DNA of 64,000 nt from a virus (IMGVR_UViG_3300027749_000040:32001-96000); one strand, 5' to 3'. Positions 20,849-55,586 are shown, numbered from the stretch's first letter. Made by a program: numbers and translations. Notes: generated from the sequence alone by a model not told the origin.

Positions 20849-21788
20849 TATTATTGATGTAGCAGATTTAGATTGCATTTATCTAAGTTACGATGAACCG
20901 CAAAAAGAAGAATTTTGGCTTAAAGTCAAACACATGGTGCCATGGGCAAAGCGTGTTGACAATGTTAAAGGTAGTGATGCGGCACACAAAGCCGCAGGTG
21001 AAGCAAGTGATACAGAACGTTTCATTTTAATTGATGGTGATAACATGCCAGAAGAAAGTTTCTTCAACATTCAATTAGATTTTACAGACAAAGACAAAAC
21101 ATTCAGAAAAGCACAGTTTAGATGGAAAGCAATTAACAGTATCAATGGCTTGCGCTATGGTAATGGTGGTATGAGCAGTTGGACAAAGACTTACGTGCGT
21201 GAAATGCAAACGCATGAGCATCAAACGGAGGGTGATGTTTCACGTATAGCTGACTTTTGTTTAGACAGCAAAGATAATCTATATTGGGCGATGCATGATT
21301 GTTACAGTACAACATATCCTAACTATACAAGTTTTCAAGCGTGGCGTGCAGGTTTCCGTGAAGGTGTTAAAATGAGTTTGAATCGAGGCGTGCGCCCAAC
21401 GGTAGATGAATTCAAAGAAACAGTTGCAAGCAGAAATCTAAACAACTTGACTATCTGGCAGAACGTGGGAATGGATGTAGAGAACGGTGAGTGGGCGATC
21501 ATGGGAGCACGTATGGGAACTCATATGACTATGCTAACTGATTGGGACGTACATAATGTTCAATGGTTTGATAACTATCCTGCAATGTGGGAGACAGTTA
21601 AAGATGAAGACCCACTAGAACTATCAGAAACATATGGTGTTGAACTAAGCACTAAGCTAGGCTTACCAATGTGTGCGTTAGATAGTAAACAGAGTAAGTT
21701 TTTCAAGCGACACTATGGATCAAATTTTCATAACAAAGGTCCACTAGTAACTGAGATGGAAGTGATTCGTGAGATTGAAGGTTGGTAA
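20835..21788 (+). CDS. Glycosyltransferase-like protein (GT-A-like)
   Basis: LSYDEP, AAHKAA, LIDGDN (DxD) and AWRAGFREGVK. The same domain occurs at the C-terminus of 44463..49160. Confidence 0.6.
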   Translation: MNSNDIIDVADLDCIYLSYDEPQKEEFWLKVKHMVPWAKRVDNVKGSDAAHKAAGEASDTERFILIDGDNMPEESFFNIQLDFTDKDKTFRKAQFRWKAINSINGLRYGNGGMSSWTKTYVREMQTHEHQTEGDVSRIADFCLDSKDNLYWAMHDCYSTTYPNYTSFQAWRAGFREGVKMSLNRGVRPTVDEFKETVASRNLNNLTIWQNVGMDVENGEWAIMGARMGTHMTMLTDWDVHNVQWFDNYPAMWETVKDEDPLELSETYGVELSTKLGLPMCALDSKQSKFFKRHYGSNFHNKGPLVTEMEVIREIEGW

Positions 21789-22450
21789 TGCAATTATATG
21801 ATCCATCTAAGAAAGGCACAATTGTAGTTGGACATATGCGTTCAGGTTCTCAATATTTATTGAGTCTAGTTAAAATAGAATTGCAAAAAAATAATGTTGA
21901 ATTTGATGACAACGGAGAATACTTTAAAGATATATTCAGTGCCATTAGATATACTGATAATAGTTACTCATTCTTAAATATTATTGACAAAATAAAAAAA
22001 CAGGACATTAGTACTAATTATAGTGTGGGTACAATCGTCTATCCTAATAGCTTAGATATGATTAGTCAGCATAAGTCAAATTATAATTATTTTTCTAATA
22101 ATTATCATCTTATTAAAATGATTAGAAAAGATGTTATGGCACAATTTATGTCATACATGGTATTTATTGAATCAAAGGCACTACATAGCGGTATAAAATC
22201 AATGGACGAAGTTAAAATAAATACTCCTTATACAGCAGGCAGACTTCATATAATACATTATCTAAATAAACTATTAGAATTAGAAAGATTTAAGGCTGAC
22301 ACAACTGTATACTATGAAGATTTACCGCACTTACCCATACCAGGTCTAACAAAAAATAATTATAATATGACCCCTAAAGAATTTTTTAAAAATTACGATG
22401 ATATTGTAAATCAAATTAACGAATTAAATATAACACATTATGAGCGGTGA
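21788..22450 (+). CDS. Sulfotransferase-like P-loop protein
   Basis: Probable start at ATG 21788 (TAATG overlap). GHMRSGSQYL resembles the 5'-PAPS-binding loop, IRKDVMAQFMS the 3'-phosphate-binding motif; VYYEDL downstream. Confidence 0.55.
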   Translation: MQLYDPSKKGTIVVGHMRSGSQYLLSLVKIELQKNNVEFDDNGEYFKDIFSAIRYTDNSYSFLNIIDKIKKQDISTNYSVGTIVYPNSLDMISQHKSNYNYFSNNYHLIKMIRKDVMAQFMSYMVFIESKALHSGIKSMDEVKINTPYTAGRLHIIHYLNKLLELERFKADTTVYYEDLPHLPIPGLTKNNYNMTPKEFFKNYDDIVNQINELNITHYER

Positions 22451-24005
22451 ATACGATCAATTCGCTAGAGATATGCGTGACCGCTTGAATGCGGTTAGTC
22501 CATCACTATGTTTGGCAAAGTGGCAACAAGTCTCTATTCACTTACCTAGTGGATTGACTCAAAGTTGCTATCATCCACCAACACATAAGATACCTCTAGA
22601 ATTACTCAAAGACAATCCTAGCGTATTACACAACACCCCAATCAAAATACATGAACGTAAGCAAATGCTTGAGGGCAAACGACCAGAAGGTTGTAGTTAT
22701 TGCTGGAAAGTAGAAGACGCTAAGAGCGAAGACCCTAAAGGTCATATGAGTGACAGACACTATCGCAGTAGCGAATGGTGGAACGCACCCACGTTTGAAG
22801 AAGTCACACAAAACAAGTTTGATTATGATGTTGTACCTCGGTATGTAGAAGTTAACTTTAATCAGGCATGTAACTTTAAATGTATGTATTGTAGTCCTCA
22901 TCTTTCTAGTAGTTGGGAAGAAGAAGTTAAAAAGCATGGTGGTTATCAATTAACCGGTATGATACATAATAACTTAAAAGCACTAGAACAAAAAGGAATG
23001 ATGCCACTCAAGGTTGCAAATAAAGACAACCCCTATGTTGAAGCATTCTGGCAATGGTTTCCTGAAATATATCGTAAACTACGTGTGTTTAGAATGACCG
23101 GTGGCGAGCCACTTATGGACAAGAACACATTCAAAGTGTTAGACTATGTAAACAAAAACCCACACGGTCAACTTGAATTATCTATCACAAGCAACATGTG
23201 CCCGCCCGATCAGAAATTATTTGACAAATTTGTTGAAAAAGTCAAAGCAATTGAGACACTACGCACATATGAAGACACAGAAAACTTCAATGTACATAGC
23301 GGTAACAACTGGTATGTAGACAAAGGATTCAAACACTTTTGGTTGTTTGTATCACTAGATGGTTTTGGTGAGCAAGCAGAATATATGAGAACTGGATTAG
23401 AGTTTGAACGCATGTTGAATAACGTAAGAACTTTTTTACGTGAAACAAAATATTCTACTGTGAGTTTTATAAACACATTCAATATCATGTCTATTCCAAG
23501 TTTACATAAGTTCTTAGAAATGGTATTAGAATTACGTGCTGAGTTTGGTGGAAGAAGTCAAGTTGAGTTTGAGATTAGTCCTGACCAAACTGAAACAGAA
23601 AAAGAAAATAACATTGTTCACAAGGTTTATACTCAAAAGAAATATCAACGTGTGTTCTTTGATATTCCAATATTACGTTACCCGCCGTGGTTTAATATTC
23701 AAAACAGCGGACAATATGGAATTGATGAAGTAGAACGTTGCTTGAAGTATATGGAAGACAATGTACAGGGTGATGACTATTTGGAAACATTTGAGGGATT
23801 TAAACCGTATGAGATATTGAAAATTAAGCGAGACCTTGCTATAATGAAAGAATCTCTACCCCCGGACCAACTTTTACTAAATAAAAAGAACTTCTACATG
23901 TTTATTACAGAATATGATAGACGCAGACAAACGAATTTTATGGAAACCTTTCCGGAACTAAAGAGCTACTGGAGAGAATGTATCAAAGCGCACACTAAAC
24001 ATTAA
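22440..24005 (+). CDS. Radical SAM protein with N-terminal Twitch-like domain (#1)
   Basis: CNFKCMYC and TGGEP. N-terminal CLAKW..SCYH..CSYC. Confidence 0.92.
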   Translation: MSGEYDQFARDMRDRLNAVSPSLCLAKWQQVSIHLPSGLTQSCYHPPTHKIPLELLKDNPSVLHNTPIKIHERKQMLEGKRPEGCSYCWKVEDAKSEDPKGHMSDRHYRSSEWWNAPTFEEVTQNKFDYDVVPRYVEVNFNQACNFKCMYCSPHLSSSWEEEVKKHGGYQLTGMIHNNLKALEQKGMMPLKVANKDNPYVEAFWQWFPEIYRKLRVFRMTGGEPLMDKNTFKVLDYVNKNPHGQLELSITSNMCPPDQKLFDKFVEKVKAIETLRTYEDTENFNVHSGNNWYVDKGFKHFWLFVSLDGFGEQAEYMRTGLEFERMLNNVRTFLRETKYSTVSFINTFNIMSIPSLHKFLEMVLELRAEFGGRSQVEFEISPDQTETEKENNIVHKVYTQKKYQRVFFDIPILRYPPWFNIQNSGQYGIDEVERCLKYMEDNVQGDDYLETFEGFKPYEILKIKRDLAIMKESLPPDQLLLNKKNFYMFITEYDRRRQTNFMETFPELKSYWRECIKAHTKH

Positions 24006-24013
24006 GGAATAAA

Positions 24014-25540
24014 ATGGCAGGCAAGAAACACGAAGAATCATTTGCACAATACAAATCACGACTTATCGACCCCATTAGCGATAGCTATTGTGCCGCTAAG
24101 TGGCTAAATGCTACTATCTGGTTAGGCAACGGACAAACAACCAGTTGTCACCACCCATTAGGTCATCAAATTGATGTCAATGAACTAGCCACAAATCCTT
24201 CAGCAATTCATAATACTCCGCACAAGAAACTAATGCGTAAAATGATGCAAGAAGGACAACGCCCGCAAGAGTGTGAATACTGCTGGAAGATTGAAGATAT
24301 TGGTCGTGATAACATGAGTGATCGTGTTTATAAAACTGCTGTGTTTGAAGAATCAGATATTCTTAAAACTGCCAAAGCAGATTGGCAAGAGAATACAATG
24401 TTGAAGACATTAGAAGTTTCTTTTGACCGTACATGTAATTTTGCTTGTAGTTATTGTAATCCAAGTTTCAGTACAACATGGGTTAAAGATATTCACAAGT
24501 TTGGTCCTTATCGTAACATTGACGGTGATGCACGTAGTCACTTTATCAATGAAGCTGACCATGCTAAACCACTAGCGGACGATATTAATCCATATTCACA
24601 GGCATTTTGGCGCTGGTGGGAAGAAGGACTTGCTGACAACTTAGAAGAAATTCGCATTACGGGTGGTGAACCATTAATGGCTCCGGGTGTATGGAAGTTG
24701 TTTGAATGGTTTCGTAATAATCAAGAACGTGCGACAAATCGTCCAGACGGTAAGGTATTGCGCTATGCTATCAACAGTAACTTAGTTCCCAAAGATGATA
24801 TCATGGACAAGTTAATTGAGTATAGCAAATTTGTTCCCTATATGGAAGTATATACAAGTTGTGAAGCTTTTGGTGCTCATGCTGAATATATCCGTGATGG
24901 TTTTGAATGGAACAAATGGATTCATAACCTAGGTAGATTGCACACTGAAGGCAATATCAAAAAGACACACATGATGATGACTATCAATAGTTTGTGTTTG
25001 GCTAGTATTGTTGAGTTCATGGATCAAATGATGGAATTCAAAAAGATTCACAACACGATGTATCCTACAATGAGTTTAAACATCTTGCGTTTCCCTAGCT
25101 TTCAAAGTTGTGCTATGTTGCCAACTGAGATTCGCCAAAAGTATAAAGACAAACTACAGGTATGGTTAGACAATCAGATTGCTATGGATTTCCGTACTAG
25201 TGAAGGTGCACCAATGTTGATGAGTATTGAGCGTGAACAAACACAACGATTGATTGATTACCTTGACGTTGTTAAAACACCACACAAGAATGTTAAAGAC
25301 ATTCCGCAGAATCATAGAGACTTTAAACAGTTCTATGCTCAATATGATGTCCGTCGTGGTAAGAGTTTCCGTAATACTTTTCCACCAGAGTTTGTTGCAT
25401 TCTATGATAGTATTCAAACAGAATTGCCAACAGCAGATGAAATTATTACACAAAATTACCGTCAAGGTGTTGATTTGATTCCGGAGCATCCACCTGAAGA
25501 TCCAAGCAAAGATGTATTTTTTAACCAAGATTTACAATGA
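24014..25540 (+). CDS. Radical SAM protein with N-terminal Twitch-like domain (#2)
   Basis: CNFACSYC and TGGEP. N-terminal CAAKW..SCHH..CEYC. Confidence 0.92.
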   Translation: MAGKKHEESFAQYKSRLIDPISDSYCAAKWLNATIWLGNGQTTSCHHPLGHQIDVNELATNPSAIHNTPHKKLMRKMMQEGQRPQECEYCWKIEDIGRDNMSDRVYKTAVFEESDILKTAKADWQENTMLKTLEVSFDRTCNFACSYCNPSFSTTWVKDIHKFGPYRNIDGDARSHFINEADHAKPLADDINPYSQAFWRWWEEGLADNLEEIRITGGEPLMAPGVWKLFEWFRNNQERATNRPDGKVLRYAINSNLVPKDDIMDKLIEYSKFVPYMEVYTSCEAFGAHAEYIRDGFEWNKWIHNLGRLHTEGNIKKTHMMMTINSLCLASIVEFMDQMMEFKKIHNTMYPTMSLNILRFPSFQSCAMLPTEIRQKYKDKLQVWLDNQIAMDFRTSEGAPMLMSIEREQTQRLIDYLDVVKTPHKNVKDIPQNHRDFKQFYAQYDVRRGKSFRNTFPPEFVAFYDSIQTELPTADEIITQNYRQGVDLIPEHPPEDPSKDVFFNQDLQ

Positions 25541-26934: not shown

Positions 26935-28160
26935 ATAGTTTGATAAGCCCTACATATTGCGTATTGCCATGGTCTCATCTGTATGCAGGGCCAGATGGAA
27001 ATATAGCACCATGTTGTGTGGGTAAAAAATTAGGAAAATATGAAGAAACTACATTAAAAGAAGCTTGGAATACTAGTGAAATGAAACAGTTGCGTTTAGA
27101 TATGATAGCAGGTGAGAAGAATGATATATGTAATGTATGTTATAATCATGAAAATGGTGGTTTCAAATCAATGCGACAAGCTTTCATCAATGAAATGCCA
27201 GATGTTACAAAAAATGTAGTAGAGATGACAAATGTAGATGGTTCTTTGTCGGATTTCAAATTATATCATTTAGATTTACGATTTAATAATCTTTGTAATT
27301 TTAAATGCAGAACATGTGGACCAAGCTTTAGTAGTTCTATTGCAATTGAATCTATACAAAATCCTAAATTAAATTTTAAAAACTTTCCTGCTTTTAAGGG
27401 ATTTAGCCAAAATCAAGGGCTTATGTCAGAGATTGAAAAACACTATCCTTATGTAAAAAGTATTTATTTTGCAGGTGGTGAACCAATGATGCAAGAAGAA
27501 CACTGGGACATATTACAACATTTTACCGAGAACGATACAGCAAAAAATGTGCACCTAATATATTCTACAAATACTAGTAAGACATCATACAAAAACAAAT
27601 CAGTATTTGATTATTGGAAATACTTCAAAGATGTTCATGTTCAAATGAGTATTGACGCTGAAGGCAAGCGGGCAGAATATTGGCGTGATGGTACGGATTG
27701 GGAAACAGTATATAACAATATTAAGCTCATTAGTTCTAGCGGAGTATATTGTACTGTGCATAGCGTCATCTCATGGATGAACATTTATAGTTATATAGAA
27801 TTAGTTAAAAAACTACTTGAAGAAAAAATAATACCTGCTAATAAGTTTACTATATGGTGCCTAGCTGACACTGAAAAAGAAGAATATTCACTACAAATAT
27901 TACCTGACTTTAAAAAACAAGAAATATCACTGGCATTAAATGATTTTATCTTATATTTGCAAAAGTGTGATAACTCACTTTATCCTAAAATAGATCATAT
28001 CATAAAAAATATAGAAAACATAAAAACTTTTATGTTTGCTAAATCACTGACTATTACCAATGAAATATTTAAAAGAAACAATATGTTAGATGAAATTAGA
28101 AATAAAGATTTTTTTGAATATTTTCCAGAACACGAAAATATGAGAGAGTATATTAAATGA
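26931..28160 (+). CDS. Radical SAM protein with N-terminal Twitch-like domain (#4)
   Basis: CNFKCRTC and AGGEP. N-terminal CVLPW..PCC..CNVC. Confidence 0.92.
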   Translation: MNSLISPTYCVLPWSHLYAGPDGNIAPCCVGKKLGKYEETTLKEAWNTSEMKQLRLDMIAGEKNDICNVCYNHENGGFKSMRQAFINEMPDVTKNVVEMTNVDGSLSDFKLYHLDLRFNNLCNFKCRTCGPSFSSSIAIESIQNPKLNFKNFPAFKGFSQNQGLMSEIEKHYPYVKSIYFAGGEPMMQEEHWDILQHFTENDTAKNVHLIYSTNTSKTSYKNKSVFDYWKYFKDVHVQMSIDAEGKRAEYWRDGTDWETVYNNIKLISSSGVYCTVHSVISWMNIYSYIELVKKLLEEKIIPANKFTIWCLADTEKEEYSLQILPDFKKQEISLALNDFILYLQKCDNSLYPKIDHIIKNIENIKTFMFAKSLTITNEIFKRNNMLDEIRNKDFFEYFPEHENMREYIK

Positions 28161-29335
28161 GTAACACACTATGCGTATTACCTTGGATGCATTTAGCAAC
28201 TCATCCAAACGGGGGTGCTAGCCTGTGTTGCCGTAGTAATCACACAGATGCAATTAGTTGGGCAAAAAAGAAAGACAGTAATAGTCTTGTCATGCTAGAT
28301 AATGATAGCGTAGAAGATATAATGAACAGTGAAAAGTTTGTTGAAGTCAGGCAAGCAATGATTGATGGCAAACGTCCAGTTGAATGTGAAGGTTGTTGGA
28401 GTGATGAAGATAAAGGCATAAAAAGTAAACGCCAATATGAGAACGAGCGTTGGGCACACATTATCCCTAAACTTGAACAAAAAGCGAAGCTCAGTGATAT
28501 CAACTTAATATATGTGGAACTACGTTTGGGTAATGTGTGCAACAATGCCTGCTTAACTTGTAATAGTTATAGCAGTACAAAGTGGTATCCTGATGAAAAG
28601 AAAATTGCTAACGATTTACCTTGGTTCAAACTACGAGCAATGGAGAACTTCAAGTGGTTTGAGAATGAAGATTTTTATTGGGATTTAGCAAATAAAAGTC
28701 AATCTGTAGAAGAAATCTATATTAATGGTGGAGAGCCTACACTTATTAAGGCTCACTTTGAATACTTAAAGCATTTGATTACATTAGGTACAGCACAGAA
28801 CGTGCATCTTGTTTATAGTTTGAATATGATGGACATCCCTGACAGGTTAATTGAGTTGTGGAAAGAATTTAAACAGGTTACAGTTAATGCTAGTATTGAT
28901 GATTTAGGAAACCGTAACTATTACATTCGTTATCCTACACAATGGGAAGAAACGATTGCAAGTATTGAAAAACTGACTAAATTATCAAATTTAAATTGGC
29001 ATGTTACTCAGACTGTTAGTATTTTAAATATCTATCATCTAGCAGAGTTTGGTAATTGGTTAGAAACAAACTATAACAAAACACCGCATCACAACTATGT
29101 ATTGTATCCGGATTATTTAAGCATTGCGGCACTGCCTGATTTCTATAAAGAAGAATTGCGTAGTCATTATGCAAGTAGACTGCATGAGTGGCAGCGCAAA
29201 GATTTGCTTAATAAGTTACATGAACCTTACCAACCAACCTTGCTAAAAAAGGCAAAAGAGTTTATAATAGCAGTTGACAAGGCACGTGGTTTAGATTATA
29301 ATAATTATATACCAGAATTAAAAGAAATATTATGA
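28157..29335 (+). CDS. Radical SAM protein with N-terminal Twitch-like domain (#5)
   Basis: CNNACLTC and NGGEP. N-terminal CVLPW..LCC..CEGC. Confidence 0.92.
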   Translation: MSNTLCVLPWMHLATHPNGGASLCCRSNHTDAISWAKKKDSNSLVMLDNDSVEDIMNSEKFVEVRQAMIDGKRPVECEGCWSDEDKGIKSKRQYENERWAHIIPKLEQKAKLSDINLIYVELRLGNVCNNACLTCNSYSSTKWYPDEKKIANDLPWFKLRAMENFKWFENEDFYWDLANKSQSVEEIYINGGEPTLIKAHFEYLKHLITLGTAQNVHLVYSLNMMDIPDRLIELWKEFKQVTVNASIDDLGNRNYYIRYPTQWEETIASIEKLTKLSNLNWHVTQTVSILNIYHLAEFGNWLETNYNKTPHHNYVLYPDYLSIAALPDFYKEELRSHYASRLHEWQRKDLLNKLHEPYQPTLLKKAKEFIIAVDKARGLDYNNYIPELKEIL

Positions 29336-30618: not shown

Positions 30619-31817
30619 CACCGTTTAAAGAATGTAGAGCACATAAAAATGCAATCTATATAGGAAATGATGATGCACCATTTAGACCTTGTTGTTGGTT
30701 TGCAGATAAAATTGATGCTACATCATATGAAGAATATCAGGATAAATTATCACATTTAGACATTGAAAAAAATTGTAGATATTGTATTGAGATGGAGTCA
30801 AATGGCGGAGAATGGAGCCATCGCATGAATTTTGCTAAGGCACTGGAAGATCCAGACTGGTATCAGGAATTGGTAGTATCAATATCATTTGATAATTTGT
30901 GCAATTTAAAATGTATTACATGCTCACCTGTAAATAGCTCCCAGTTAGCAATTGAAATTTTAAATCCTGAGATTAGAGAAAAATATACTTCAATACATAA
31001 AAAAGAACCAATTAAGACTGAGTTTTTAAAAAATATGTTATCTAATACTGAATTTAATTATAATACTGAATTTAGTTATAAAACTATTACAGAAGGTAAT
31101 GCTAATTATAGTAACCTTCGTATAGAAATACTAGGCGGAGAACCTTTAATAAATCCTGCAGTATATAATTTTTTAGATTGGTTAGTAGAGCAACCATATG
31201 CGTCAGTAACAGCAGTAAGCATTACTACCAATGGGACTATATTTAATGACAAATTTATAAAATATATAAAACATTTACACCATATCTCTTTGCAATTTAG
31301 TATTGATGGTATAGAAGACACGTTTGAATATATAAGATTTGGTTCAAAATTTTCTACTCTTGAAGAAGTTACTAATAAATTTTATGACCTGCTCGCCCTA
31401 TACCCTGAAAAATTTAAAATGGCAATGCACTACACATTGAGTTGGATGAACTCACTGCACATTAAAGAATTTTTTAATTGGGTTAATGTTAATTATCCTG
31501 AAGTACAATATATATTGGTTACAAAACTTGAGTGGCCAAATAATTATGATATTAATGTTTTGCCAATGGATTTGAGAAAACAAATAGTTGAAGAAATATC
31601 AAACAGTATTGTTGGTTATAATGACGGGGTTCAATTGGGATTTAAATATTATAAACAGCATATGCTTAATACTCCAAATAATACAAAAGTATCTTATAAT
31701 GTACAAAGAGGTATGAACGCTTTAGCTAAAAATGATAAACTTATAAATAGAAATTCAGACTTCAATAAAACTTTTAAACCAATGCTAGATTTACTAAAAA
31801 CAAATAATATTATATGA
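30609..31817 (+). CDS. Radical SAM protein with short N-terminal Twitch-like domain (#7)
   Basis: CNLKCITC and LGGEP. N-terminal C..RPCCWF..CRYC. Close paralog of #9. Confidence 0.9.
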   Translation: MDLTPFKECRAHKNAIYIGNDDAPFRPCCWFADKIDATSYEEYQDKLSHLDIEKNCRYCIEMESNGGEWSHRMNFAKALEDPDWYQELVVSISFDNLCNLKCITCSPVNSSQLAIEILNPEIREKYTSIHKKEPIKTEFLKNMLSNTEFNYNTEFSYKTITEGNANYSNLRIEILGGEPLINPAVYNFLDWLVEQPYASVTAVSITTNGTIFNDKFIKYIKHLHHISLQFSIDGIEDTFEYIRFGSKFSTLEEVTNKFYDLLALYPEKFKMAMHYTLSWMNSLHIKEFFNWVNVNYPEVQYILVTKLEWPNNYDINVLPMDLRKQIVEEISNSIVGYNDGVQLGFKYYKQHMLNTPNNTKVSYNVQRGMNALAKNDKLINRNSDFNKTFKPMLDLLKTNNII

Positions 31818-33121: not shown

Positions 33122-34229
33122 TATCTTTATTGCAAATGAAGAAAATCCATATAGACCCTGTTGCTGGTTTAAAACTTATATTAATGCGACTGATGTTAAT
33201 GATTACAAAAAACAATTAGCTGAAATAGATATCGAAACTAATTGCGATTATTGTATTCAACAAGACAAGGGCGGTTCATATAGTTACAGGCAACAATTTA
33301 ATGATGCTGAAGAATTAATTATAACTGCATCCTTTGACAACTTATGTAATTTAAAATGCATTACGTGTACTCCAAATAATAGCACACAGATTTTTGCAGA
33401 ACGTTTTAAATTCCATAATGAAGCAGATGCTCAATATTTAAAGAATTATATTACTGACGTTGTTAGTAAACAAGCACCTAAAAAAATAGATTTTATTAAA
33501 TCTATGTTAGCAGATGCTACATTTAAAAAACTAAGATTTGATATACTAGGAGGAGAACCATTAATTAACCCTGCTATTTATGAGTTCTTGGACTGGTTAG
33601 TAGAACAACCCTATGCAAAAGAAACAACAGTAGCTATCACAACAAATGGTACAACTTATGATGAAAAATTAATAAAATATATTAGTGGCTTTAAACGCAT
33701 GGGTGTACAATTAAGTATAGACGGAATTGAAGAAGAATTTGAATATCTTAGATACGGGGCCTCATTTGAAACTTTAGAAAAAGTATGCGATTCATTCTAT
33801 GAGCTAACAAAAAAATATGAAACTTTTCATATGGGATCTCATTATACACTATCGTGGATGAATTGTTTAAGATTCCCTAAATTTTTTAATTGGATGCAAA
33901 CTAGGTATCCTGATATAAGTGATATTTATATTAGTAAGTTACAAGAACCTAATCAATTTTCCATTGAATTGTTGTCTTTAGCTCAACGCCAAAAGATATA
34001 TGATGATGTAATAAGTAGATTGAACTCTCCAATTAATGAATCATATAAAAGAACATTATTTTTATATAAAGAACATATGCTAAACACTACATATGATGAA
34101 TTTAATTTAGAAAAATTTACATTTGGATTAGGAATGCTAACCACCTCAGATCGCAAACGAGGTAACAACCATATGAAGATAGTAAAAGATTTTATAGAAT
34201 TTATTGAAATTGAAAAAAATGATAGATAA
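33078..34229 (+). CDS. Radical SAM protein with short N-terminal Twitch-like domain (#9)
   Basis: CNLKCITC and LGGEP. N-terminal C..RPCCWF..CDYC. Confidence 0.9.
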   Translation: MDLTPYKNCLALTNSIFIANEENPYRPCCWFKTYINATDVNDYKKQLAEIDIETNCDYCIQQDKGGSYSYRQQFNDAEELIITASFDNLCNLKCITCTPNNSTQIFAERFKFHNEADAQYLKNYITDVVSKQAPKKIDFIKSMLADATFKKLRFDILGGEPLINPAIYEFLDWLVEQPYAKETTVAITTNGTTYDEKLIKYISGFKRMGVQLSIDGIEEEFEYLRYGASFETLEKVCDSFYELTKKYETFHMGSHYTLSWMNCLRFPKFFNWMQTRYPDISDIYISKLQEPNQFSIELLSLAQRQKIYDDVISRLNSPINESYKRTLFLYKEHMLNTTYDEFNLEKFTFGLGMLTTSDRKRGNNHMKIVKDFIEFIEIEKNDR

Positions 34230-35529
34230 AAAGATTGATGAATTATCAAAAACTTTTTGTAGCGTACCGTGGTTACAAATTCATACAGAACCGGATGGTA
34301 AAGTATTTCCCTGTTGTTATTATACCCATGCTAGTAATTACAATTTAGGTAACTGGAACGAACAAAAAATAAAAGACATATTCCATGGTGACAAATGGAA
34401 TAAACTTAGAAAAGATTTCTTAGATGGAAAAAAGCCTAACGCATGTAATAGATGTTGGAAAGAAGAAGATTCAGGAATTGTTAGTATGCGTCAACGATTT
34501 AATGAACGATATTCAAACTTTCCAGACTATACTAATCAGAACGGATATAATAAATTTGATGATATTATAGCTGTAGGGAATGATGACGGCTCCGTAGAAG
34601 ATATAAAATTGGCTACTGTAGATTTGATATTCAATAACCTATGCAATATGAAATGTAGAACATGTGGTCCCGGCTTAAGCACATCCTGGATTCCTGACGA
34701 AATTAAATTGGGTCGTTCAAAAATTAACCCGGTATCATTGTTGACAAACGAAACGGTCACTCATATGAAAGATGATTTAGTTGCATTAGTTGAGATGGTC
34801 GATCCTTATACTGAGATACACTTTAGTGGCGGCGAACCCATGATGCAAGCAGATCATTATCAGTTCTTGCAATTGTTGCTAGACATGGGCAAAACTAAAG
34901 TAAAAATTCGTTATAACACAAACCTTACAGTGTACACGCTTAAAGAGTACAATGCATTTGAAATGCTTAAAAACTTTGATAATGTATTTATGGTTGGAAG
35001 TTGCGATGCTATGGGCAAGCAAGGTGAATATATTCGTAAAGGATTTGATTGGGAAAAAGCTTTAGAATGGTTAAAGACTTGTAAAGAATATTTACCCAAT
35101 GCTGATTATGGAATAAGTGCAGTGTATAGTTTATTAAATGCTTCAGCATCCGTTGACTTTCATAGATATATGTGCGAAAGTACATTATTCAAACGAAGTA
35201 ACGGTACTAACTTTGGATTCTACTTGAACACATTGCACGAACCTATGTGGTTAAAGACAACTCTATTACCGATAGAAGTTAAAGAAGTAGTTACAGAAAA
35301 AATTAGTAAGCATATTGAATGGCTTAGTGAAACACAACCACATGACTTTCATTATGATGTATACATTGACCATTGGAAGAATGCTATTACATTGATGAAT
35401 AGTGCTGACCATAGCGGATTGATACCAAATTTCTACAAAGAAACACATTTATTAGATAGTATACGCAATGAAAAGTTTGAAGAAGTATTTCCTGAATTAC
35501 ATGAAAAAATGAAAATATATGACAAATGA
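34219..35529 (+). CDS. Radical SAM protein with N-terminal Twitch-like domain (#10)
   Basis: Probable start at ATG 34219. CNMKCRTC and SGGEP. N-terminal CSVPW..PCC..CNRC. Confidence 0.92.
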   Translation: MIDKKIDELSKTFCSVPWLQIHTEPDGKVFPCCYYTHASNYNLGNWNEQKIKDIFHGDKWNKLRKDFLDGKKPNACNRCWKEEDSGIVSMRQRFNERYSNFPDYTNQNGYNKFDDIIAVGNDDGSVEDIKLATVDLIFNNLCNMKCRTCGPGLSTSWIPDEIKLGRSKINPVSLLTNETVTHMKDDLVALVEMVDPYTEIHFSGGEPMMQADHYQFLQLLLDMGKTKVKIRYNTNLTVYTLKEYNAFEMLKNFDNVFMVGSCDAMGKQGEYIRKGFDWEKALEWLKTCKEYLPNADYGISAVYSLLNASASVDFHRYMCESTLFKRSNGTNFGFYLNTLHEPMWLKTTLLPIEVKEVVTEKISKHIEWLSETQPHDFHYDVYIDHWKNAITLMNSADHSGLIPNFYKETHLLDSIRNEKFEEVFPELHEKMKIYDK

Positions 35530-36847
35530 TTTTAATCCAGTTGAAATGGCAAAGAACAGCAAAACATTTTGTATCTTTCCATGGATACAGCAATATGTAG
35601 GACCGCCGGGTGATGTTAAACCGTGTTGTGTATATGACAATCAAGATGAGATTGGTAGTTTAAAAGAAAACACATTAGCAGAAATTTGGAATAACGATAA
35701 GACAAAACAAATGCGTTTAAACTTCCTTAATGGAATTGAAGAACCAAGTTGTAGTATATGTAACCGTCGTGCAGGATTAGGTCATGCACATAAAAATGAG
35801 TACAATAGAATGTTCTTTGACAATGATGAAGAAATTCAAAAAATTGTAGCAAGCACTAATACAGACGGATCATTGGATGAGCACAAACTATACTACATTG
35901 ATGTTAGATATAATAATCTATGTAATTTAAGTTGTCGTAGTTGTGCTCCGCATTTTAGTACTAGTTGGGTAATGGATCATCGCAAATTGTATAACTTAGC
36001 TGAAAGACGAGATAAAGATGATGGTTATCAATTCCCGGGCAAGACAGAAGTACAAGCATTAGAAGAAATAATTCCTCATCTAGCAACAGCTAAAATGATT
36101 TACTTTGCAGGTGGTGAACCACTGATGCAAAAGGAACACTATGAAGTACTCAACAAATTAATTGAGTTTGGCAACACTGATTTAGAGATTCGCTATAACA
36201 CAAACTTCAGTAACTTTAAATTAAAAAAATACGACAATGTATTAGAGTACTGGAAGAAGTTTTCAAATGTACATGTGTATGCTAGTTTAGATGGTAGCCA
36301 TGAAAAGGGTGAATACTGGCGCAATGGTATAGATTGGAAGCAGGTTATAGAAAATCGTACACAAATGATGGAGGAATGTCCTCACGTGCATTTTATGATA
36401 TCATATACTCTAAGTTGGCCTAATGCTTTTAACTTAGTAGAATTTCATAGAGAATGGGCAGAATTGGGATATCTCAAACCAGAACACATGATGGTTAACC
36501 CATTAGACACCCCTTCGTACTATTGCTTGAAAAATATTCCAGATTGGAAAAAAACAGAGATTGAAAAAGCATTGCAAAAAAATATTGACTGGTTAAAATC
36601 TTTAGACCCGACGTTCGGAATCATAAGTATGTATGAGACAGCAATTAAATTCATGTGGGATAAAAATGGGCAATACTACAATGGCATTGACGAGAGTTTG
36701 AAAGAATTCAATAAAATCTCTACCCGATTAGATGAGATACGTGATCAAAGTTTCTTTGATGTATATCCTGAACATATAAACATCAAAAATTATTTGATCC
36801 ATAATGAATTAAATGTTGAATTTGACTACAGCACATCCAAAAAATAA
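35519..36847 (+). CDS. Radical SAM protein with N-terminal Twitch-like domain (#11)
   Basis: CNLSCRSC and AGGEP. N-terminal CIFPW..KPCC..CSIC. Confidence 0.92.
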   Translation: MTNDFNPVEMAKNSKTFCIFPWIQQYVGPPGDVKPCCVYDNQDEIGSLKENTLAEIWNNDKTKQMRLNFLNGIEEPSCSICNRRAGLGHAHKNEYNRMFFDNDEEIQKIVASTNTDGSLDEHKLYYIDVRYNNLCNLSCRSCAPHFSTSWVMDHRKLYNLAERRDKDDGYQFPGKTEVQALEEIIPHLATAKMIYFAGGEPLMQKEHYEVLNKLIEFGNTDLEIRYNTNFSNFKLKKYDNVLEYWKKFSNVHVYASLDGSHEKGEYWRNGIDWKQVIENRTQMMEECPHVHFMISYTLSWPNAFNLVEFHREWAELGYLKPEHMMVNPLDTPSYYCLKNIPDWKKTEIEKALQKNIDWLKSLDPTFGIISMYETAIKFMWDKNGQYYNGIDESLKEFNKISTRLDEIRDQSFFDVYPEHINIKNYLIHNELNVEFDYSTSKK

Positions 36848-38100
36848 TGGAAGAAAAGAAACTATTTAAAATAAGAGATGAGACAAGCGATACGTTTTGT
36901 CTAGCAAAATTTCATGAGGCAAGCATCTGGGTTTACTCGGGTAAGATTGCCAGTTGCCATTATACCCCGTTTATTCAAGTGGGTAATACAGTAGATACAT
37001 TCTATAATCCAGCAGAAAAACGTGAACAACAAAAGAAAATGTTAGCAGGAGAACAACCACCTGCATGTGATAGTTGCTGGCGTTATGAGAATTTAGGATT
37101 GCGTAGTGACAGAACACGCAAGAGTCTAAGTTTTACTGACCATTTAGCCGCAGAAGATTATAAGAATCCTAACTATGTGTTCAAACCCAAAGCATTAGAG
37201 TTAGCATTTCAAAATACTTGTAATTTAGCATGTAGCTATTGTAGCCCGCAATTTAGTACTAGTTGGACCAATGATATTAGAGTAAATGGCGTTTACAAAG
37301 GTATTATTACTGATGATCGCAGACACTATCAAAAGGATATAAACGAACTTAATGAGATGATAGACCCGCCTGATATGACATTGTTCTGGGAATGGTTTGA
37401 GAGTGTTGCTACTGGTTTAGAATCTATTCGTGTTTCCGGTGGTGAACCACTAATGCACGAAGAAGTTTTTCGTGTATTTGAAATGATGACAGAGATAAAC
37501 CCTAACATTGAATGCGTGATACACAGCAACCTCTGCCAAAAGCCAGCAATCATGGATAGATTCTTTGATAAGATTAGTGGATTAACTAATTTACGAATGA
37601 ACATTAGTAATGAATCTGCAGGCGAGACTGCTGAATTTGTGCGTGAAGGTATGATATACACCGAATGGTTGGAGAATATCGAACGACTAGCAAACAGTAC
37701 AGTAAAAGAGTTTAGTGTAAGCACCACTGTAAGTGCAATTGCATTACAATCACTTGACCAAATGTATTTGGACATAATTAATATTCGGAAACACACAAAA
37801 GTAAAACCCTATATCTCTATCAACATGGTTGATAAGCCAGACTTTCAAGGATTTGCTTGTTTAACACGTGAAGAACGTGACTTCTACATTAATAAGTACA
37901 CAAAGTTTTATGATTCAATTAAGGATAAGTTATTACCAGTAGAACATGAACATTGTGCTAGACTGCTTAAGTTTTTAGATGAAGGTTTCATTAAAGAAAC
38001 CCAACCACAATTACGTAAAGACAGTGATATATTCTTTGAACAATATACTCAGCGTAGAAATAAACCAGACAATCTAGCAAAATATATAGGATTAAAATAA
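36847..38100 (+). CDS. Radical SAM protein with N-terminal Twitch-like domain (#12)
   Basis: CNLACSYC and SGGEP. N-terminal CLAKF..SCHY..CDSC. Confidence 0.92.
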   Translation: MEEKKLFKIRDETSDTFCLAKFHEASIWVYSGKIASCHYTPFIQVGNTVDTFYNPAEKREQQKKMLAGEQPPACDSCWRYENLGLRSDRTRKSLSFTDHLAAEDYKNPNYVFKPKALELAFQNTCNLACSYCSPQFSTSWTNDIRVNGVYKGIITDDRRHYQKDINELNEMIDPPDMTLFWEWFESVATGLESIRVSGGEPLMHEEVFRVFEMMTEINPNIECVIHSNLCQKPAIMDRFFDKISGLTNLRMNISNESAGETAEFVREGMIYTEWLENIERLANSTVKEFSVSTTVSAIALQSLDQMYLDIINIRKHTKVKPYISINMVDKPDFQGFACLTREERDFYINKYTKFYDSIKDKLLPVEHEHCARLLKFLDEGFIKETQPQLRKDSDIFFEQYTQRRNKPDNLAKYIGLK

Positions 38101-39272
38101 TGGAACGAATGTATGAAGTAGAGAATGTAAAAAGATTGCATATAGAATTGTCTAGTAGATGTAATGCTAGTTGTCCTGCGTGTAGTAGAAACTATTCAGG
38201 CGGTCCTGTTGCGGATAGTTTGGAACTAACTGACTTATCATTGGATGACATTAAGCGTATGGTTCCCAAAGAGATAGCAAAGAATTTAATTGGTATAAAT
38301 TTCTGTGGTAATGTAGGTGATCCTGGTATGGCACCTGACTTAATTCCTATACTAGAATACTTTAGAGAGCAATCACCAAAAATAGTTCAACAACTTAGAA
38401 CCAATGGTGGTATGCGTAATGACAAGTTTTGGACAACATTGGGTGATTTCTTTGTAAAACAACCACCTCCAAGAGACAATCATTTGTTTAGTAAAGCCGG
38501 AGTTGTATTCAGCGTAGACGGGCTAGAAGATACAAACCATATATACCGAAGAGGTGTTATATGGGACAAACTAATTAGAAACATGAGAGCTTATAGTGAC
38601 ACTGGCGCTTTTGCTGTTTGGGAATGGTTATTATTCGAACACAATGAGCATCAAGTTGAAGAAGCAAGAACAATAGCTAAAGAATTGGGATTTGAATTTA
38701 TTGTTAAAAACCCATTAGGTTTTGGTGAGTATGAAGATACATTAAGTGGGATGAATGTGTACGGTAAAGACGGGGACTATGAGTACACTATATGGCCTAG
38801 TAAATATACTGGGCATAGAAAAGAGCCGTTGTTTGGTAAAAAAGTTGATTTTACTTACATGAACAGATTAACTATTCCTATCTTACCTGAGTTTAGTAAA
38901 GAATTAGAAAAGAATTCAGATATAGTTTGTAAGTCTATTGAGCATAAGGAATCTAAAGAAATATACATATCAGCAAATGGATATATGTTACCGTGTTGTT
39001 TTTTAGGTGGAGTGTTTGGTCAGTTTCATAGTTCATATTCACGCTATCAATTTAACAAAATGATTAATGATTATGGATTAGAAGTTTTTAATTTAAAAAA
39101 TCAATCAATATTGGATATTATTCAAGGTCCTGATTTTAGTAAGTTCTTTTTAGATGGATGGAAAGCAGATACAATTGAGAATGGTAAATTGTTATATTGC
39201 TTAGAAACATGCGGGCACAAGTCTGCTATGGACAAATTATATAGTACAAAAATTATAGAGGTGGCTAAATGA
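38100..39272 (+). CDS. Radical SAM protein with C-terminal SPASM/Twitch-like domain (#13)
   Basis: N-terminal CNASCPAC and CGNVGDP. C-terminal C..IYISANGYMLPCC..CLETC (conventional domain order). Confidence 0.9.
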   Translation: MERMYEVENVKRLHIELSSRCNASCPACSRNYSGGPVADSLELTDLSLDDIKRMVPKEIAKNLIGINFCGNVGDPGMAPDLIPILEYFREQSPKIVQQLRTNGGMRNDKFWTTLGDFFVKQPPPRDNHLFSKAGVVFSVDGLEDTNHIYRRGVIWDKLIRNMRAYSDTGAFAVWEWLLFEHNEHQVEEARTIAKELGFEFIVKNPLGFGEYEDTLSGMNVYGKDGDYEYTIWPSKYTGHRKEPLFGKKVDFTYMNRLTIPILPEFSKELEKNSDIVCKSIEHKESKEIYISANGYMLPCCFLGGVFGQFHSSYSRYQFNKMINDYGLEVFNLKNQSILDIIQGPDFSKFFLDGWKADTIENGKLLYCLETCGHKSAMDKLYSTKIIEVAK

Positions 39273-40000
39273 AAATAGGTGTATTTGGTGATAGTTTTGC
39301 AGATAGAACGCCGTACAATCCAGAGAGCCCCTTCAAAGAAGATGAGTCGTGGATTGCCGATATGGAATCAGCCGGACACAAGATAACATCGTACGGAAAA
39401 ACAGGAACTTCTACGTGGTATTCCTTTCAGCAATTTATAGCGCACTGTGAACAATTTGATCACATTGTGTTCTGCTACTCATCACTTCACAGAATGCATC
39501 ATTTACCGGATGGGCTAGAAGATTTGAGTTTTCTAACAACCCCTGATGAGTTATATTCATTGAGAAGAAATAAAAATTTATCTAAACAACAAGAATTAGA
39601 AATGGTTAGAATATTGACTGGACATGTACCTAACATTTCAGTGCCTTTTGATATTTGGATAAAGCAAAAAATATTTAATGATGTAAACTTAATGTGTTAT
39701 AGTAAAAATATTAAACTTGTAAATCTTCTTACCTTTGATGATAGAAAAGATAAACATACTACTATATCACTGGAAGAAAGACACGGAGAATGTTTATATA
39801 ACTTATTTGCTGTAAGTAAAAAAGAGTTACCTACTATGGGTGATGTAGATAATAGATGGTGTCATCTATCTAAGGAAAATAATATAGTATTGTCTAACAT
39901 TATATTTAATTCTTTAATCAGCGAAGATAAAAACATTATTGATTTATACAAAAATACTAATTTTTTATATAACAAAGAAATTACTGCGAGGTATGAATGA
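39269..40000 (+). CDS. SGNH/GDSL hydrolase-fold protein (putative acyltransferase/esterase)
   Basis: GVFGDSF block I, YGKTGTS block II and a C-terminal His (RWCHLS). Confidence 0.6.
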   Translation: MKIGVFGDSFADRTPYNPESPFKEDESWIADMESAGHKITSYGKTGTSTWYSFQQFIAHCEQFDHIVFCYSSLHRMHHLPDGLEDLSFLTTPDELYSLRRNKNLSKQQELEMVRILTGHVPNISVPFDIWIKQKIFNDVNLMCYSKNIKLVNLLTFDDRKDKHTTISLEERHGECLYNLFAVSKKELPTMGDVDNRWCHLSKENNIVLSNIIFNSLISEDKNIIDLYKNTNFLYNKEITARYE

Positions 40001-40749
40001 GTACACTTGATAGAATAATAGTGTTAGGTGATAGTTATACGTTTGGACATGGCTGTTCGGACAGAATATACTATTATGACGAAGACCTTAAAAAATTTGT
40101 AGGAGATATAACTCCTATGCAACAGTGTATTCCTAGCGAATACTGTTGGCCAGCACTATTGCAAAAAGAATTTCCTAATTTAAAAATATTTAATTTATCG
40201 CAACCCGGTCATTGTAATCCGGGAATGTTTAGAGATTTATCAGAATTTTATTTCAAAAATGGTCATAAGTCAAATGATTTGGTTATTTTCAACGGCACAT
40301 TTCCAGATAGGATAGAAGTTAAAACTATGTATACTGACGATGAAATTGGATCATGGTCGATTAAATGGGAGTATATGTCAGGTGGACAAGATTTTAAAGA
40401 ATATATTTCAGCCCAAAAGGAATATACTAAACACTTATATCATGAAAAAATAGGTATTAATCTAACATTAAGTTCTTTGTTTAGTATACATGGTTATACC
40501 ACAGTCAATAGACATAATTTTTTATATAGCATGCCTGATTATTTACTTAAAACATTACAAAGGCACGTAGAACCATTATCAAAGTATAATATACCACCTA
40601 TCCATAATTATGATTTTTCAAGTGAAAACAACTATCAATTCAATATAACATGTCAAGCTAAGGACACACATACCAACGAAAGGGGTCATGAAATTTATTA
40701 TGAAAAAGAAATAAAACCCCGTATAGAAAAATTTATAAGTAAACAATGA
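39997..40749 (+). CDS. SGNH/GDSL hydrolase-fold protein
   Basis: VLGDSYT, NLSQPG and DTHTNERGH. Confidence 0.65.
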   Translation: MSTLDRIIVLGDSYTFGHGCSDRIYYYDEDLKKFVGDITPMQQCIPSEYCWPALLQKEFPNLKIFNLSQPGHCNPGMFRDLSEFYFKNGHKSNDLVIFNGTFPDRIEVKTMYTDDEIGSWSIKWEYMSGGQDFKEYISAQKEYTKHLYHEKIGINLTLSSLFSIHGYTTVNRHNFLYSMPDYLLKTLQRHVEPLSKYNIPPIHNYDFSSENNYQFNITCQAKDTHTNERGHEIYYEKEIKPRIEKFISKQ

Positions 40750-42050
40750 AAAAAACATTCCCTATACAAAACGATGCCGCTTGTCTCTACAAATGGGCTT
40801 GGAGTACCTTATTTTTAAGTAGAGGCACTACTTCAAGTTGTCATAGAGGTCGTCATTGGAGATTGACTGAAGATAACTTTATGGATTTTCACAACCATCA
40901 TGGTAAACTCGCTGATAGAGAAAAAATGGCAAGTGGTGAATGGCCTGGTAACGGTTGTGAATATTGCAGAGACATTGAAAAGACCGGTGGCAAAAGTGAT
41001 AGGACCGGATTTGTCAACGAATCAATTGAATTACTACCCCCGGAGTTTGAAGGATATGTACAACGTGCATATGAGTTTGATAGTATTCCATTAAAAGTTA
41101 GCCCCACCTTGCTTGAAGTATACTTCAATAACGTATGTAATCAATCATGTGTATATTGTACCCCCGGTTTTAGTAGTCAGATTGAACAAGAAGTTCGTAA
41201 ATTTGGACCTAGCAAATTTAATGAAGATTACAGCACATGGCGCCCAGACTCTAAGTATGAAATGTATAAGGAGAAGTTTTGGGAATGGATGGAAAAGAAT
41301 AGCGAACACTTGCAAATTTTACAAGTATTAGGCGGAGAACCGTTATATCAAAAAGAATTTGAGCAATGCTTGGATTTCTTTGACAGAAATCCTAGACCAA
41401 ATTTAGTCTACCGCTCGTTCAGTAATCTAAAGCATGAACCTGAAAAGTTCAAAGCAAAAATTCAACGTGTGCAAAACTTAATAGATCAGGGAAAATTAAA
41501 ACGTATGGAATTTGTCTGTAGCATTGATTGCTGGGGGCCGGAAATTGAATATGTGCGTGATGGATTAATATTAACTGAATGGGAACAGAACCTAAATACA
41601 TTATTACATTCCCCGGGCGTAGGCGTATTGATTCACGCCACTCTTACTGCATTGACATTGCCCACCTTACATCAGTTAATAGAGAAAACAAATGAATGGC
41701 GCACGATTAAATCTACGGTTGGTATTAATTGGAACACTGTGGTTAGACCCTCAACATTCAATCCATATAACTTTGGTAAATATATAGCACCTTTTATTGA
41801 TGCATCGATTCAAGCGTTAGAAAATTATAGTGATCCCATCGAAAAAGAAAAACTACAAACTCATTTAATGGGAATACAACAACAACTATTGACTACCCCT
41901 GCAAACAAGAAAGAAGTTAATGATTTTGCTAACTTCTTAACTGACATAGACAAACGTAGAAATAGAGACTGGCAAGCAATATTTCCTCAGATTGTAGATA
42001 TAATAAATACTATCAACAAAGAGGAGCCGGATCATGTTCAAGTGGATTAA
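40746..42050 (+). CDS. Radical SAM protein with N-terminal Twitch-like domain (#14)
   Basis: CNQSCVYC and LGGEP. N-terminal CLYKW..SCHR..CEYC. Confidence 0.92.
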   Translation: MKKTFPIQNDAACLYKWAWSTLFLSRGTTSSCHRGRHWRLTEDNFMDFHNHHGKLADREKMASGEWPGNGCEYCRDIEKTGGKSDRTGFVNESIELLPPEFEGYVQRAYEFDSIPLKVSPTLLEVYFNNVCNQSCVYCTPGFSSQIEQEVRKFGPSKFNEDYSTWRPDSKYEMYKEKFWEWMEKNSEHLQILQVLGGEPLYQKEFEQCLDFFDRNPRPNLVYRSFSNLKHEPEKFKAKIQRVQNLIDQGKLKRMEFVCSIDCWGPEIEYVRDGLILTEWEQNLNTLLHSPGVGVLIHATLTALTLPTLHQLIEKTNEWRTIKSTVGINWNTVVRPSTFNPYNFGKYIAPFIDASIQALENYSDPIEKEKLQTHLMGIQQQLLTTPANKKEVNDFANFLTDIDKRRNRDWQAIFPQIVDIINTINKEEPDHVQVD

Positions 42051-42138
42051 AAATTTATATCACAGTATAAAATCGGAAATTCGTTATCGTAAACGATTAA
42101 AAGAATTACGCAAAAGAGATCCCTTCATCTACAAATGA
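42034..42138 (+). CDS. 34-aa basic micro-protein ending DPFIYK (not in the ORF track)
   Basis: MFKWIKNLYHSIKSEIRYRKRLKELRKRDPFIYK*. SD GAGGAG at 42021-42026. ATGA-coupled to the next gene. Confidence 0.75.
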   Translation: MFKWIKNLYHSIKSEIRYRKRLKELRKRDPFIYK

Positions 42139-55568: not shown

Positions 55569-55586
55569 TTCAGTTACTAGTTTTAC

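Follow-up and report, generated by a model that had tools for sequence, protein, structure and literature searches.

An array of N-terminal-twitch radical SAM enzymes in a freshwater giant phage is an expanded form of a common phage module linked to tail-fibre and glycosyltransferase genes

What does a phage do with fourteen radical S-adenosylmethionine (SAM) enzymes encoded almost side by side? This question is raised by a stretch of 64,000 nucleotides (the window) that covers bases 32001-96000 of the 174-kb IMG/VR record IMGVR_UViG_3300027749_000040, an uncultured freshwater giant phage with a CheckV completeness of ~50%. Thirteen of these enzymes belong to a family in which a cysteine-rich "twitch" domain precedes the radical SAM core (N-twitch enzymes). 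We found that the array represents an enlarged version of a common phage module tied to tail-fibre and glycosyltransferase genes, a link that the initial annotation, made from the sequence of the window, had missed. The array is the largest form of this common, uncharacterised module, and the radical SAM tailoring enzymes themselves are of an already known kind.

The radical SAM genes and their domain order

Listing of the open reading frames (ORFs) and counting of motifs identified 14 intact radical SAM ORFs, each with one CxxxCxxC motif and each matching the Pfam family Radical_SAM (PF04055). The GGEP motif is present in 13 of them and absent only from R13, which represents a different class. 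The NCBIfam model NF033640 (N_Twi_rSAM, N-terminal twitch radical SAM), with its curated cut-off of 170 bits, was passed by 13 ORFs at 185-352 bits over nearly its full length; R13 remained below the cut-off (48 bits) and is not a member. Pfam SPASM-type domains were found at the N-terminus (residues ~6-111) in 7 of the 13 N-twitch ORFs. Only R13 carries a C-terminal SPASM domain (residues 284-350) and thereby the canonical order of anSME, BtrN and the maturases of peptides made on the ribosome and modified after translation (RiPPs), which the other 13 do not have. The genes are as follows; S numbers denote subfamilies, bit scores refer to NF033640 and omega is the ratio of nonsynonymous to synonymous substitution rates.

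22440..24005, plus strand: R01, N-twitch radical SAM enzyme, S0; 286 bits; orthologues 87-97%; omega <0.1
24014..25540, plus strand: R02, N-twitch radical SAM enzyme, S0; 299 bits
25537..26934, plus strand: R03, N-twitch radical SAM enzyme, S2; 300 bits
26931..28160, plus strand: R04, N-twitch radical SAM enzyme, S1; 346 bits; phage-specific addition, best match in the sampled loci 35-39%
28157..29335, plus strand: R05, N-twitch radical SAM enzyme, S5; 340 bits
29332..30618, plus strand: R06, N-twitch radical SAM enzyme, S0; 282 bits
30609..31817, plus strand: R07, N-twitch radical SAM enzyme, S9; 188 bits; not in the closest relatives
31814..33121, plus strand: R08, N-twitch radical SAM enzyme, S1; 348 bits; phage-specific addition, paralogue of R11 at 48%
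33078..34229, plus strand: R09, N-twitch radical SAM enzyme, S9; 185 bits; paralogue of R07 at 45%; orthologues in L086 and L087 at 71-72%
34204..35529, plus strand: R10, N-twitch radical SAM enzyme, S8; 352 bits; the modelled copy; orthologues 45-87%
35519..36847, plus strand: R11, N-twitch radical SAM enzyme, S1; 348 bits
36847..38100, plus strand: R12, N-twitch radical SAM enzyme, S6; 240 bits; omega ~0.03
38100..39272, plus strand: R13, conventional radical SAM enzyme, N-terminal core followed by C-terminal SPASM/twitch-like cysteines (Pfam SPASM); orthologues 61-91%
40746..42050, plus strand: R14, N-twitch radical SAM enzyme, S4; 235 bits; orthologues 72-96%; omega 0.02-0.08

ORF listing, motifs and NF033640 thus bear out the earlier count of 14 ORFs with an intact CxxxCxxC, 13 of which have GGEP and an N-terminal Cys-rich domain. 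The contiguous run that had been described needs one correction: 13 radical SAM genes, most of them overlapping, do stand back-to-back at 22440-39272, but they comprise 12 N-twitch genes and the conventional R13, and the thirteenth N-twitch gene is R14. The C-terminal tail ascribed to most copies is less uniform than stated, since the strict form D-x2-R-x3-[FWY]-x3-[FY]PE occurs in only 6 of the 13 and a looser form in 9 of the 13, with another variant recognizable by eye in R14. Past the window, the record encodes three further radical SAM genes (G000:C1:96186-96540, 100963-102060 and 110793-111356), which brings its total to 17; one of these is a full family member (235 bits) and the 14th N-twitch copy.

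In an alignment of the 13 N-twitch ORFs, four N-terminal cysteines (C-x18-C, ~42 residues, CxxC), the three core cysteines and GGEP are invariant, as are N240, S266 and R278 (R10 numbering); the family-invariant residues are intact in all 13 copies. Besides R278, the conserved arginines include R69, R96 and R421 of R10. We compared a profile of the N-terminal 110 residues with all PDB sequences and obtained a sole significant match (E 5.8e-6), to the C-terminally placed twitch domain of BtrN, in which the four cysteines are aligned. BtrN is a carbohydrate dehydrogenase. Judged by this match, the enzymes carry a genuine twitch domain of BtrN type ahead of the radical SAM core. Since the BtrN domain is matched with all four cysteines, the domain order is inverted, as the initial annotation had proposed, and the recognised family to which it had referred is NF033640. 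From the same four aligned cysteines, a single, fully Cys-ligated auxiliary cluster is expected in these enzymes.

The AlphaFold2 (AF2) model of R10 is confident, with a predicted local distance difference test score (pLDDT) of 93.7. Foldseek returned generic radical SAM matches to this model (SkfB, anSME, CteB and viperin) at template modelling (TM) scores of 0.3-0.4, so the whole architecture is present in no solved structure. Alignment by VIA-align placed BlsE first (Z 13.3), followed by SkfB (12.5), CteB (12.2), and viperin and MoaA (both 11.9), with radical SAM cores in general at Z 10-13; BlsE, a twitch enzyme acting on a sugar nucleoside, is therefore essentially tied with the others. 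Of BtrN, only the twitch domain matches by sequence; the 50 fold matches listed for the whole model do not include this enzyme. With a profile search over 1.84 billion representatives, we identified 8,075 family clusters (50% identity) at E <= 1e-30, and some of the chains hold two or three N-twitch units.

A module of fibre, glycosyltransferase and radical SAM genes

A scan of IMG/VR revealed at least 567 phage stretches encoding a relative. Counted within 10 kb of the match across 85 viral loci, N-twitch genes most often number 5-6 per locus (mode) and at most 10. Clustering of the encoded proteins yielded a canonical gene order of fibG2, fib317, o102, GTa, GTb, o110, GTc, radical SAM S0, c3, S0, S1, S3, S2, c7 and carbamoyltransferase. 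The exact radical SAM order S0 S0 S1 S3 S2 is found in 24 loci and, with one insertion, in several more; the commonest subfamilies are represented by one or two copies per phage in conserved order. The order in the window is S0 S0 S2 S1 S5 S0 S9 S1 S9 S8 S1 S6 S4, and beyond the usual module the window contains eight additional radical SAM genes, three SGNH genes and one sulfotransferase-like gene. The fibre genes are a near-constant part of this arrangement: o102 has fib317 as its immediate upstream neighbour in 38 of the 39 viral loci where this could be assessed, homologues of fibG2 head the module in 33 viral loci, and distant relatives have a GP38 adhesin or a Peptidase_G2-like fibre gene upstream. 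Other loci add genes for UDP-glucose dehydrogenase, DegT, a short-chain dehydrogenase/reductase (SDR) epimerase, adenosine phosphosulfate (APS) kinase, ferredoxin and B12-dependent radical SAM proteins.

Matches in cultured phages were confined to Vibrio phages K566 and K567 and Ralstonia phage RsoM2USA. The latter (L001, MG752970.1 216629-221946) carries a minimal module with one radical SAM gene in ORF348-353, all annotated as hypothetical. Read from ORF353 to ORF348, it encodes GTa, GTb, a small ORF, GTc (41% identity), an S0-type radical SAM enzyme (34% to R01) and a GTc-like protein. A short distance upstream of this module are the sheath gene ORF359 and the genes of virion proteins ORF361 and ORF356 (PMC8504454). 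Comparable gene sets have been reported before: 12 radical SAM genes were noted, along with one for an A-type carrier, in the T4-like marine viral genome TARA_ERS488813_N000010 (Nishimura et al. 2017; PMC5332604), and T4-like pelagimyophages were described to have radical SAM cassettes and genes of glycosyltransferase family 8 (GT8) in their host recognition cluster (Zaragoza-Solas et al. 2020; PMC7029224).

In the window, the genes accompanying the array are the following.

3..15593, plus strand: giant fibre-like ORF of more than 5196 amino acids (aa), open at the window start; weak FG-GAP match and short segments like Caulobacter phage tail-fibre proteins
16416..17639, plus strand: fibG2, fibre-like; weak C-terminal match to Peptidase_G2/intramolecular chaperone (PF11962, E 3.9e-4, below cut-off)
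17650..18603, plus strand: fib317, conserved candidate fibre component and candidate glycan acceptor, directly upstream of o102
18650..18958, plus strand: o102, conserved small protein that opens the tightly packed enzyme block; in 50 viral loci; no family match
18919..19758, plus strand: GTa, GT8-like (glycogenin-like) glycosyltransferase of GT-A type; glycogenin profile match; Atlas clusters PF03407/PF01501
19755..20531, plus strand: GTb, paralogue of GTa from the same cluster, which usually has two members per locus
20516..20848, plus strand: o110, conserved small protein; in 42 viral loci
20835..21788, plus strand: GTc, GT-A fold, DxD motif IDGDN; best conserved of the module's enzymes (70 of 86 loci); AF2 pLDDT 87
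21782..22450, plus strand: sulfotransferase-like accessory protein; Atlas structure at TM 0.65-0.72 to Stf0/NodH-type clusters; in L086
39269..40000, plus strand: SGNH1, GDSL/SGNH-type esterase- or acyltransferase-like protein; profile match to GDSL proteins in the PDB, E 6e-6
39997..40749, plus strand: SGNH2, GDSL/SGNH-type; profile match to GDSL proteins
42135..42959, plus strand: SGNH3, GDSL/SGNH-type; profile match to GDSL proteins
42956..44452, plus strand: carbamoyltransferase, NodU/CmcH-type; Pfam Carbam_trans_N E 1e-33, Carbam_trans_C E 4e-47; end of the core module
44463..49160, plus strand: 1565-aa protein with nine FD[FY]SWxP...P[FY]IY repeats and a weak GTc-like stretch (residues 1425-1498, E 0.003)
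49157..50140, plus strand: o327, member of the multi-copy cluster c3 (~2-3 per module); a GT10-like motif ("ET...TEK") recognised by eye only

The candidate acceptor fib317 consists of 16% Thr, 15% Ala, 11% Gly and 10% Asn and is also Ser-rich; Pfam and PDB profile searches gave no significant match to it. Immediately ahead of position 18650, where o102 opens the enzyme block, are a CTAAATA box and a Shine-Dalgarno sequence. The GTa/GTb profile matches glycogenin-1 and -2 over positions 6-108 (E 5.6e-5 to 1e-3), with an invariant Asp at the DxD motif. The GTc model was matched by Foldseek almost exclusively to GT-A-fold transferases, and VIA placed it at Z 9.1-8.0 to B4GALNT1, CHSY3, WrtF and SunS; a capsid glycosyltransferase of Chlorella virus PBCV-1 was also listed. 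In the three SGNH proteins, the Gly and Ser of block I are invariant. The carbamoyltransferase gene is present in 47 viral loci and also in cellular clusters. The repeats of the 1565-aa protein are ~65-130 aa apart; its GTc-like part lies near the C-terminus, and the protein shares the BLAST cluster of GTc but belongs to no named family.

Several searches remained negative. Ten unnamed ORFs of the module gave nothing usable in Pfam at E <= 10 or in PHROGs, the profiles of c3/o327 and GTc found nothing significant among PDB sequences, and the sulfotransferase-like, GTa and SGNH2 ORFs had no match in single-sequence PDB searches. Membrane-like segments were found in none of the module ORFs. T4-type late promoter boxes are not enriched, and scans for sigma-70 promoters and terminators stayed at chance level. 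With respect to iron-sulfur cluster supply, the phage encodes an A-type Fe-S carrier outside the window (G000:C1:132062-132364; PF01521, 69 bits), and neither IscU nor a flavodoxin was found in the 174-kb fragment.

Further downstream, 54465-57105 encodes a MoxR-type AAA ATPase followed by a DUF2201 metallopeptidase-like protein with a von Willebrand factor A domain, a frequent pair, and 58457-63999 a GH113-like glycoside hydrolase, a thymidylate-synthase-family protein (299 aa), an SDR epimerase/dehydratase and a DegT aminotransferase. Of these, the SDR and DegT genes (61963-63999) are further sugar-nucleotide genes and lie ~18 kb past the carbamoyltransferase gene that ends the core.

This gene content has to be weighed against two readings in which fibres play no part. 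BtrN-type twitch, BlsE-like, carbamoyltransferase, DegT and SDR genes are typical of clusters for aminoglycoside and nucleoside antibiotics. The module could thus direct the synthesis of a metabolite of this type against competitors or host defences, in line with the twitch domain, the top fold match to BlsE, the TobZ/NodU type of the carbamoyltransferase and the nearby DegT and SDR genes. But no cyclitol synthase, exporter or resistance gene is present, the GT8-like enzymes match glycogenin, which glycosylates protein, and the association with fibre genes, seen in 38 of 39 loci, would be left unexplained; we consider a small-molecule pathway very unlikely. Alternatively, transferases and radical SAM enzymes could decorate modified bases of the phage DNA. 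Phages are known to glycosylate DNA, a thymidylate-synthase-family gene is located at 60773-61672, and in L081 a deoxycytidine monophosphate (dCMP) deaminase gene follows that of the carbamoyltransferase. However, a base-hydroxymethylase and a kinase are absent inside the module, which occupies a structural position and does not lie with replication genes, and the cellular homologues are found in exporter clusters. This makes DNA hypermodification extremely improbable.

Selection on the copies and their turnover

The paralogues within the array share only 17-48% identity. The array is therefore old and not the result of a recent amplification, and an origin by recent tandem duplication was rejected. 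Ten of the radical SAM genes (R01-R03, R05, R06 and R10-R14) have 1:1 orthologues in L084 and L085 at 61-89% identity and in L086 at 85-97%. For these ten, the nonsynonymous divergence (dN) is 0.06-0.28, whereas synonymous sites are saturated (proportion of synonymous differences, pS, ~0.7), and omega is therefore below ~0.1 in every case. The ten shared genes are under strong purifying selection, and neutral decay was rejected for them. The SGNH genes and the carbamoyltransferase gene are less well conserved than these radical SAM genes.

The remaining copies behave differently. R04, R07 and R08 are missing in all four close relatives, and R09 together with the sulfotransferase-like gene is missing in L084 and L085; orthologues of R07 (65-72%) exist on other metagenome contigs. 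The G+C content over R07-R09 (30000-34000) is 0.30-0.32 compared to ~0.35 around it, and this stretch has the appearance of a cassette taken up from another phage with lower G+C content. From the presence and absence of R04, R07, R08 and R09 among relatives and the low G+C content of R07-R09 we conclude that copies come and go as cassettes. The initial annotation had read the array as a set of retained enzymes that serve a multi-step or combinatorial pathway. Orthologue dN, paralogue divergence and the ordered subfamilies support retained, non-redundant copies, while a multi-step pathway is so far suggested by the gene context.

Proposed function and comparison with known systems

Family members are also widespread in cells, with representatives in Bacteroidota, Bdellovibrionota/Oligoflexia, Elusimicrobiota, Proteobacteria and one Synechococcus genome. 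Contigs from metagenome-assembled genomes that share the small ORFs of the phages are probably mis-binned phage DNA. Apparently genuine cellular clusters (L007, L026, L040, L041, L045 and L062) encode 1-3 N-twitch enzymes together with 4-9 PhyH dioxygenases, ABC-2 and ATP-binding cassette (ABC) ATPase exporter components, GT2 and GT4 glycosyltransferases, UbiA-like and GDSL-like proteins (fused in L062) and a carbamoyltransferase. Homology of the phage SGNH proteins to the GDSL-like cluster of cells is supported by hhalign (97%). In cells, the family is therefore part of pathways for exported glycans or glycolipids with heavy C-H tailoring. As an observation in its own right, the arrays of 4-9 PhyH paralogues beside an N-twitch gene, ABC-2, UbiA-GT4-GDSL and carbamoyltransferase genes in Bacteroidota and Henriciella (L007, L026, L040, L045 and L062) are an uncharacterised glycan or glycolipid cluster themselves.

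This cellular context could suggest that the phage cassette makes or alters sugars of the host O-antigen or capsule, for superinfection exclusion or release. The relatives in cells do sit in exported-glycan clusters, and the GT8 genes of the pelagimyophage clusters, where radical SAM cassettes also occur, have been read as O-chain modifiers (PMC7029224). Against this, the module lacks a flippase, a polymerase, an ABC transporter, a polyprenyl-phosphate transferase and any membrane segment, and it is co-oriented and overlapping with fibre genes. We regard remodelling of the host surface as distinctly unlikely.

Instead, we favour, at about an even chance, a reading in which the array takes part in building a glycan in the cytoplasm and editing it by radical chemistry, with virion fibre proteins as the probable acceptors. 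Since no membrane component is present in the module, we argue for a soluble acceptor; virion fibre proteins are suggested by the almost invariant linkage to fib317 and fibG2. The three GT-A-type transferases (GTa, GTb and GTc) and the glycosyltransferase-like c3 proteins would place sugars on this acceptor, most likely the Thr/Ser-rich fib317, the giant fibre-like ORF product, or both. Each N-twitch enzyme would then cleave SAM at the CxxxCxxC cluster and abstract one particular sugar C-H hydrogen, with the BtrN-type, fully Cys-ligated auxiliary cluster as a possible electron outlet or return path, to give sugars in keto, epimerised or deoxy form. Further decoration may come from the carbamoyltransferase, from the sulfotransferase-like protein and from the three SGNH enzymes, which would handle acyl groups. 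The diverged radical SAM subfamilies would perform different steps, and cassette-like gain and loss of the extra copies R04, R07, R08 and R09 would leave related phages with differently edited coats.

A number of points weigh against this proposal. Acceptor, substrate class and type of reaction are all inferred, the acceptor being a guess from synteny. The assignments of GTc, GTa/GTb and the sulfotransferase-like protein come from weak or structural evidence, in the absence of Pfam matches. Across loci, the number of radical SAM genes does not correlate with that of glycosyltransferase-like genes (r = 0.02). The literature searched holds neither a biochemical datum on any NF033640 member nor a paper on its function. 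Finally, the sugar-acting and peptide-acting fold matches of R10 are tied within ~1.5 Z units, characterised SPASM/twitch enzymes mostly act on peptides, and some family chains are fused to tetratricopeptide repeats (TPR), which are usually protein-binding.

These last points bear on the strongest competing explanation, namely that the radical SAM enzymes act directly on residues of the fibre or giant-ORF proteins, by epimerisation or by C-C, C-O or C-S cross-links that harden or diversify the fibres, and that the transferases are a separate decoration. SkfB, CteB, anSME and SuiB are in the top fold matches, and the module always adjoins fibre-like genes. On the other side, scans of the 14 ORFs against Pfam and NCBIfam found no match of the RiPP recognition element (RRE)/PqqD type, which divergent RREs could escape. 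There is no small Cys-rich or repetitive precursor: o102 and o110 do not look like precursor peptides, and fib317 has one cysteine and fibG2 about one. The cellular homologues lie in exporter, glycosyltransferase and UbiA glycan clusters with no obvious protein target. We thus judge direct protein modification unlikely, but keep it alive because of the tied peptide-enzyme folds and the TPR fusions. The host-surface, small-molecule and DNA readings likewise rank below glycan editing on fibre proteins.

A more specific version of glycan editing, which we put forward as rather doubtful, would make the N-twitch enzymes a new class of post-assembly glycan editors that act on fibre-attached sugars rather than on nucleotide sugars, with cassette swapping giving rise to lineage-specific coats. 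A distinct coat may tune adsorption or shield the fibre from host proteases or defences, and such enzymes could be the anaerobic-chemistry counterpart to the cellular PhyH dioxygenase arrays.

NF033640 is a large family with inverted domain order whose reaction is yet to be assigned, and the ~18 kb that this phage spends on selected copies indicate that the chemistry matters to phages. If the target is a virion glycan, this would be the first radical-SAM-edited viral coat and a new source of C-H-functionalising sugar enzymes, and it would explain a hypervariable, host-range-shaping region in abundant aquatic phages. The cultured phage RsoM2USA, with its one-enzyme module, offers a practical and direct test system.

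Among characterised enzymes, BtrN (2-deoxy-scyllo-inosamine dehydrogenase of the butirosin pathway; PDB 4M7S/4M7T) shares its twitch domain with the N-twitch enzymes. In BtrN this domain follows the radical SAM core, whereas here it precedes it, and the cores are just generically similar. In addition, the N-twitch enzymes, unlike BtrN, have an extra helical C-terminal domain of ~100 aa with the D-x2-R...FPE tail.

The proposed cassette can be likened to the virus-encoded virion glycosylation of PBCV-1 (A64R) and of mycobacteriophages with glycosylated virions, in which structural proteins are the cytoplasmic targets of soluble GT-A enzymes; A64R also appears in the list of GTc fold matches. 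For the present phage, glycosylation of the virion is a proposal. No radical SAM enzymes are known from the PBCV-1 and mycobacteriophage systems.

Closest in gene content are the radical SAM cassettes of the pelagimyophages and the TARA genome, which are likewise multi-copy, located in the tail-fibre region with GT8-type transferases, gained and lost between close relatives, and accompanied by an A-type carrier. Both reports devote one sentence to these genes and leave family, architecture, subfamily order and function unanalysed (PMC7029224, PMC5332604). The present phage is larger and from freshwater. We did not adopt its assignment as a pelagimyophage, because its giant ORF has no recognisable match to VrlC in cultured phages.

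The ABC-transporter-dependent glycan clusters of Bacteroidota and Alphaproteobacteria share N-twitch enzymes, carbamoyltransferase, GDSL-like proteins and glycosyltransferases with the phage module. They differ from it by their 4-9 PhyH dioxygenases, ABC-2 exporter and UbiA-like membrane parts, and they have just 1-3 radical SAM enzymes compared to the phage array. Whereas members of NF033640 are usually annotated gene by gene, 13 of them, from at least 8 subfamilies, are found here together in one phage.

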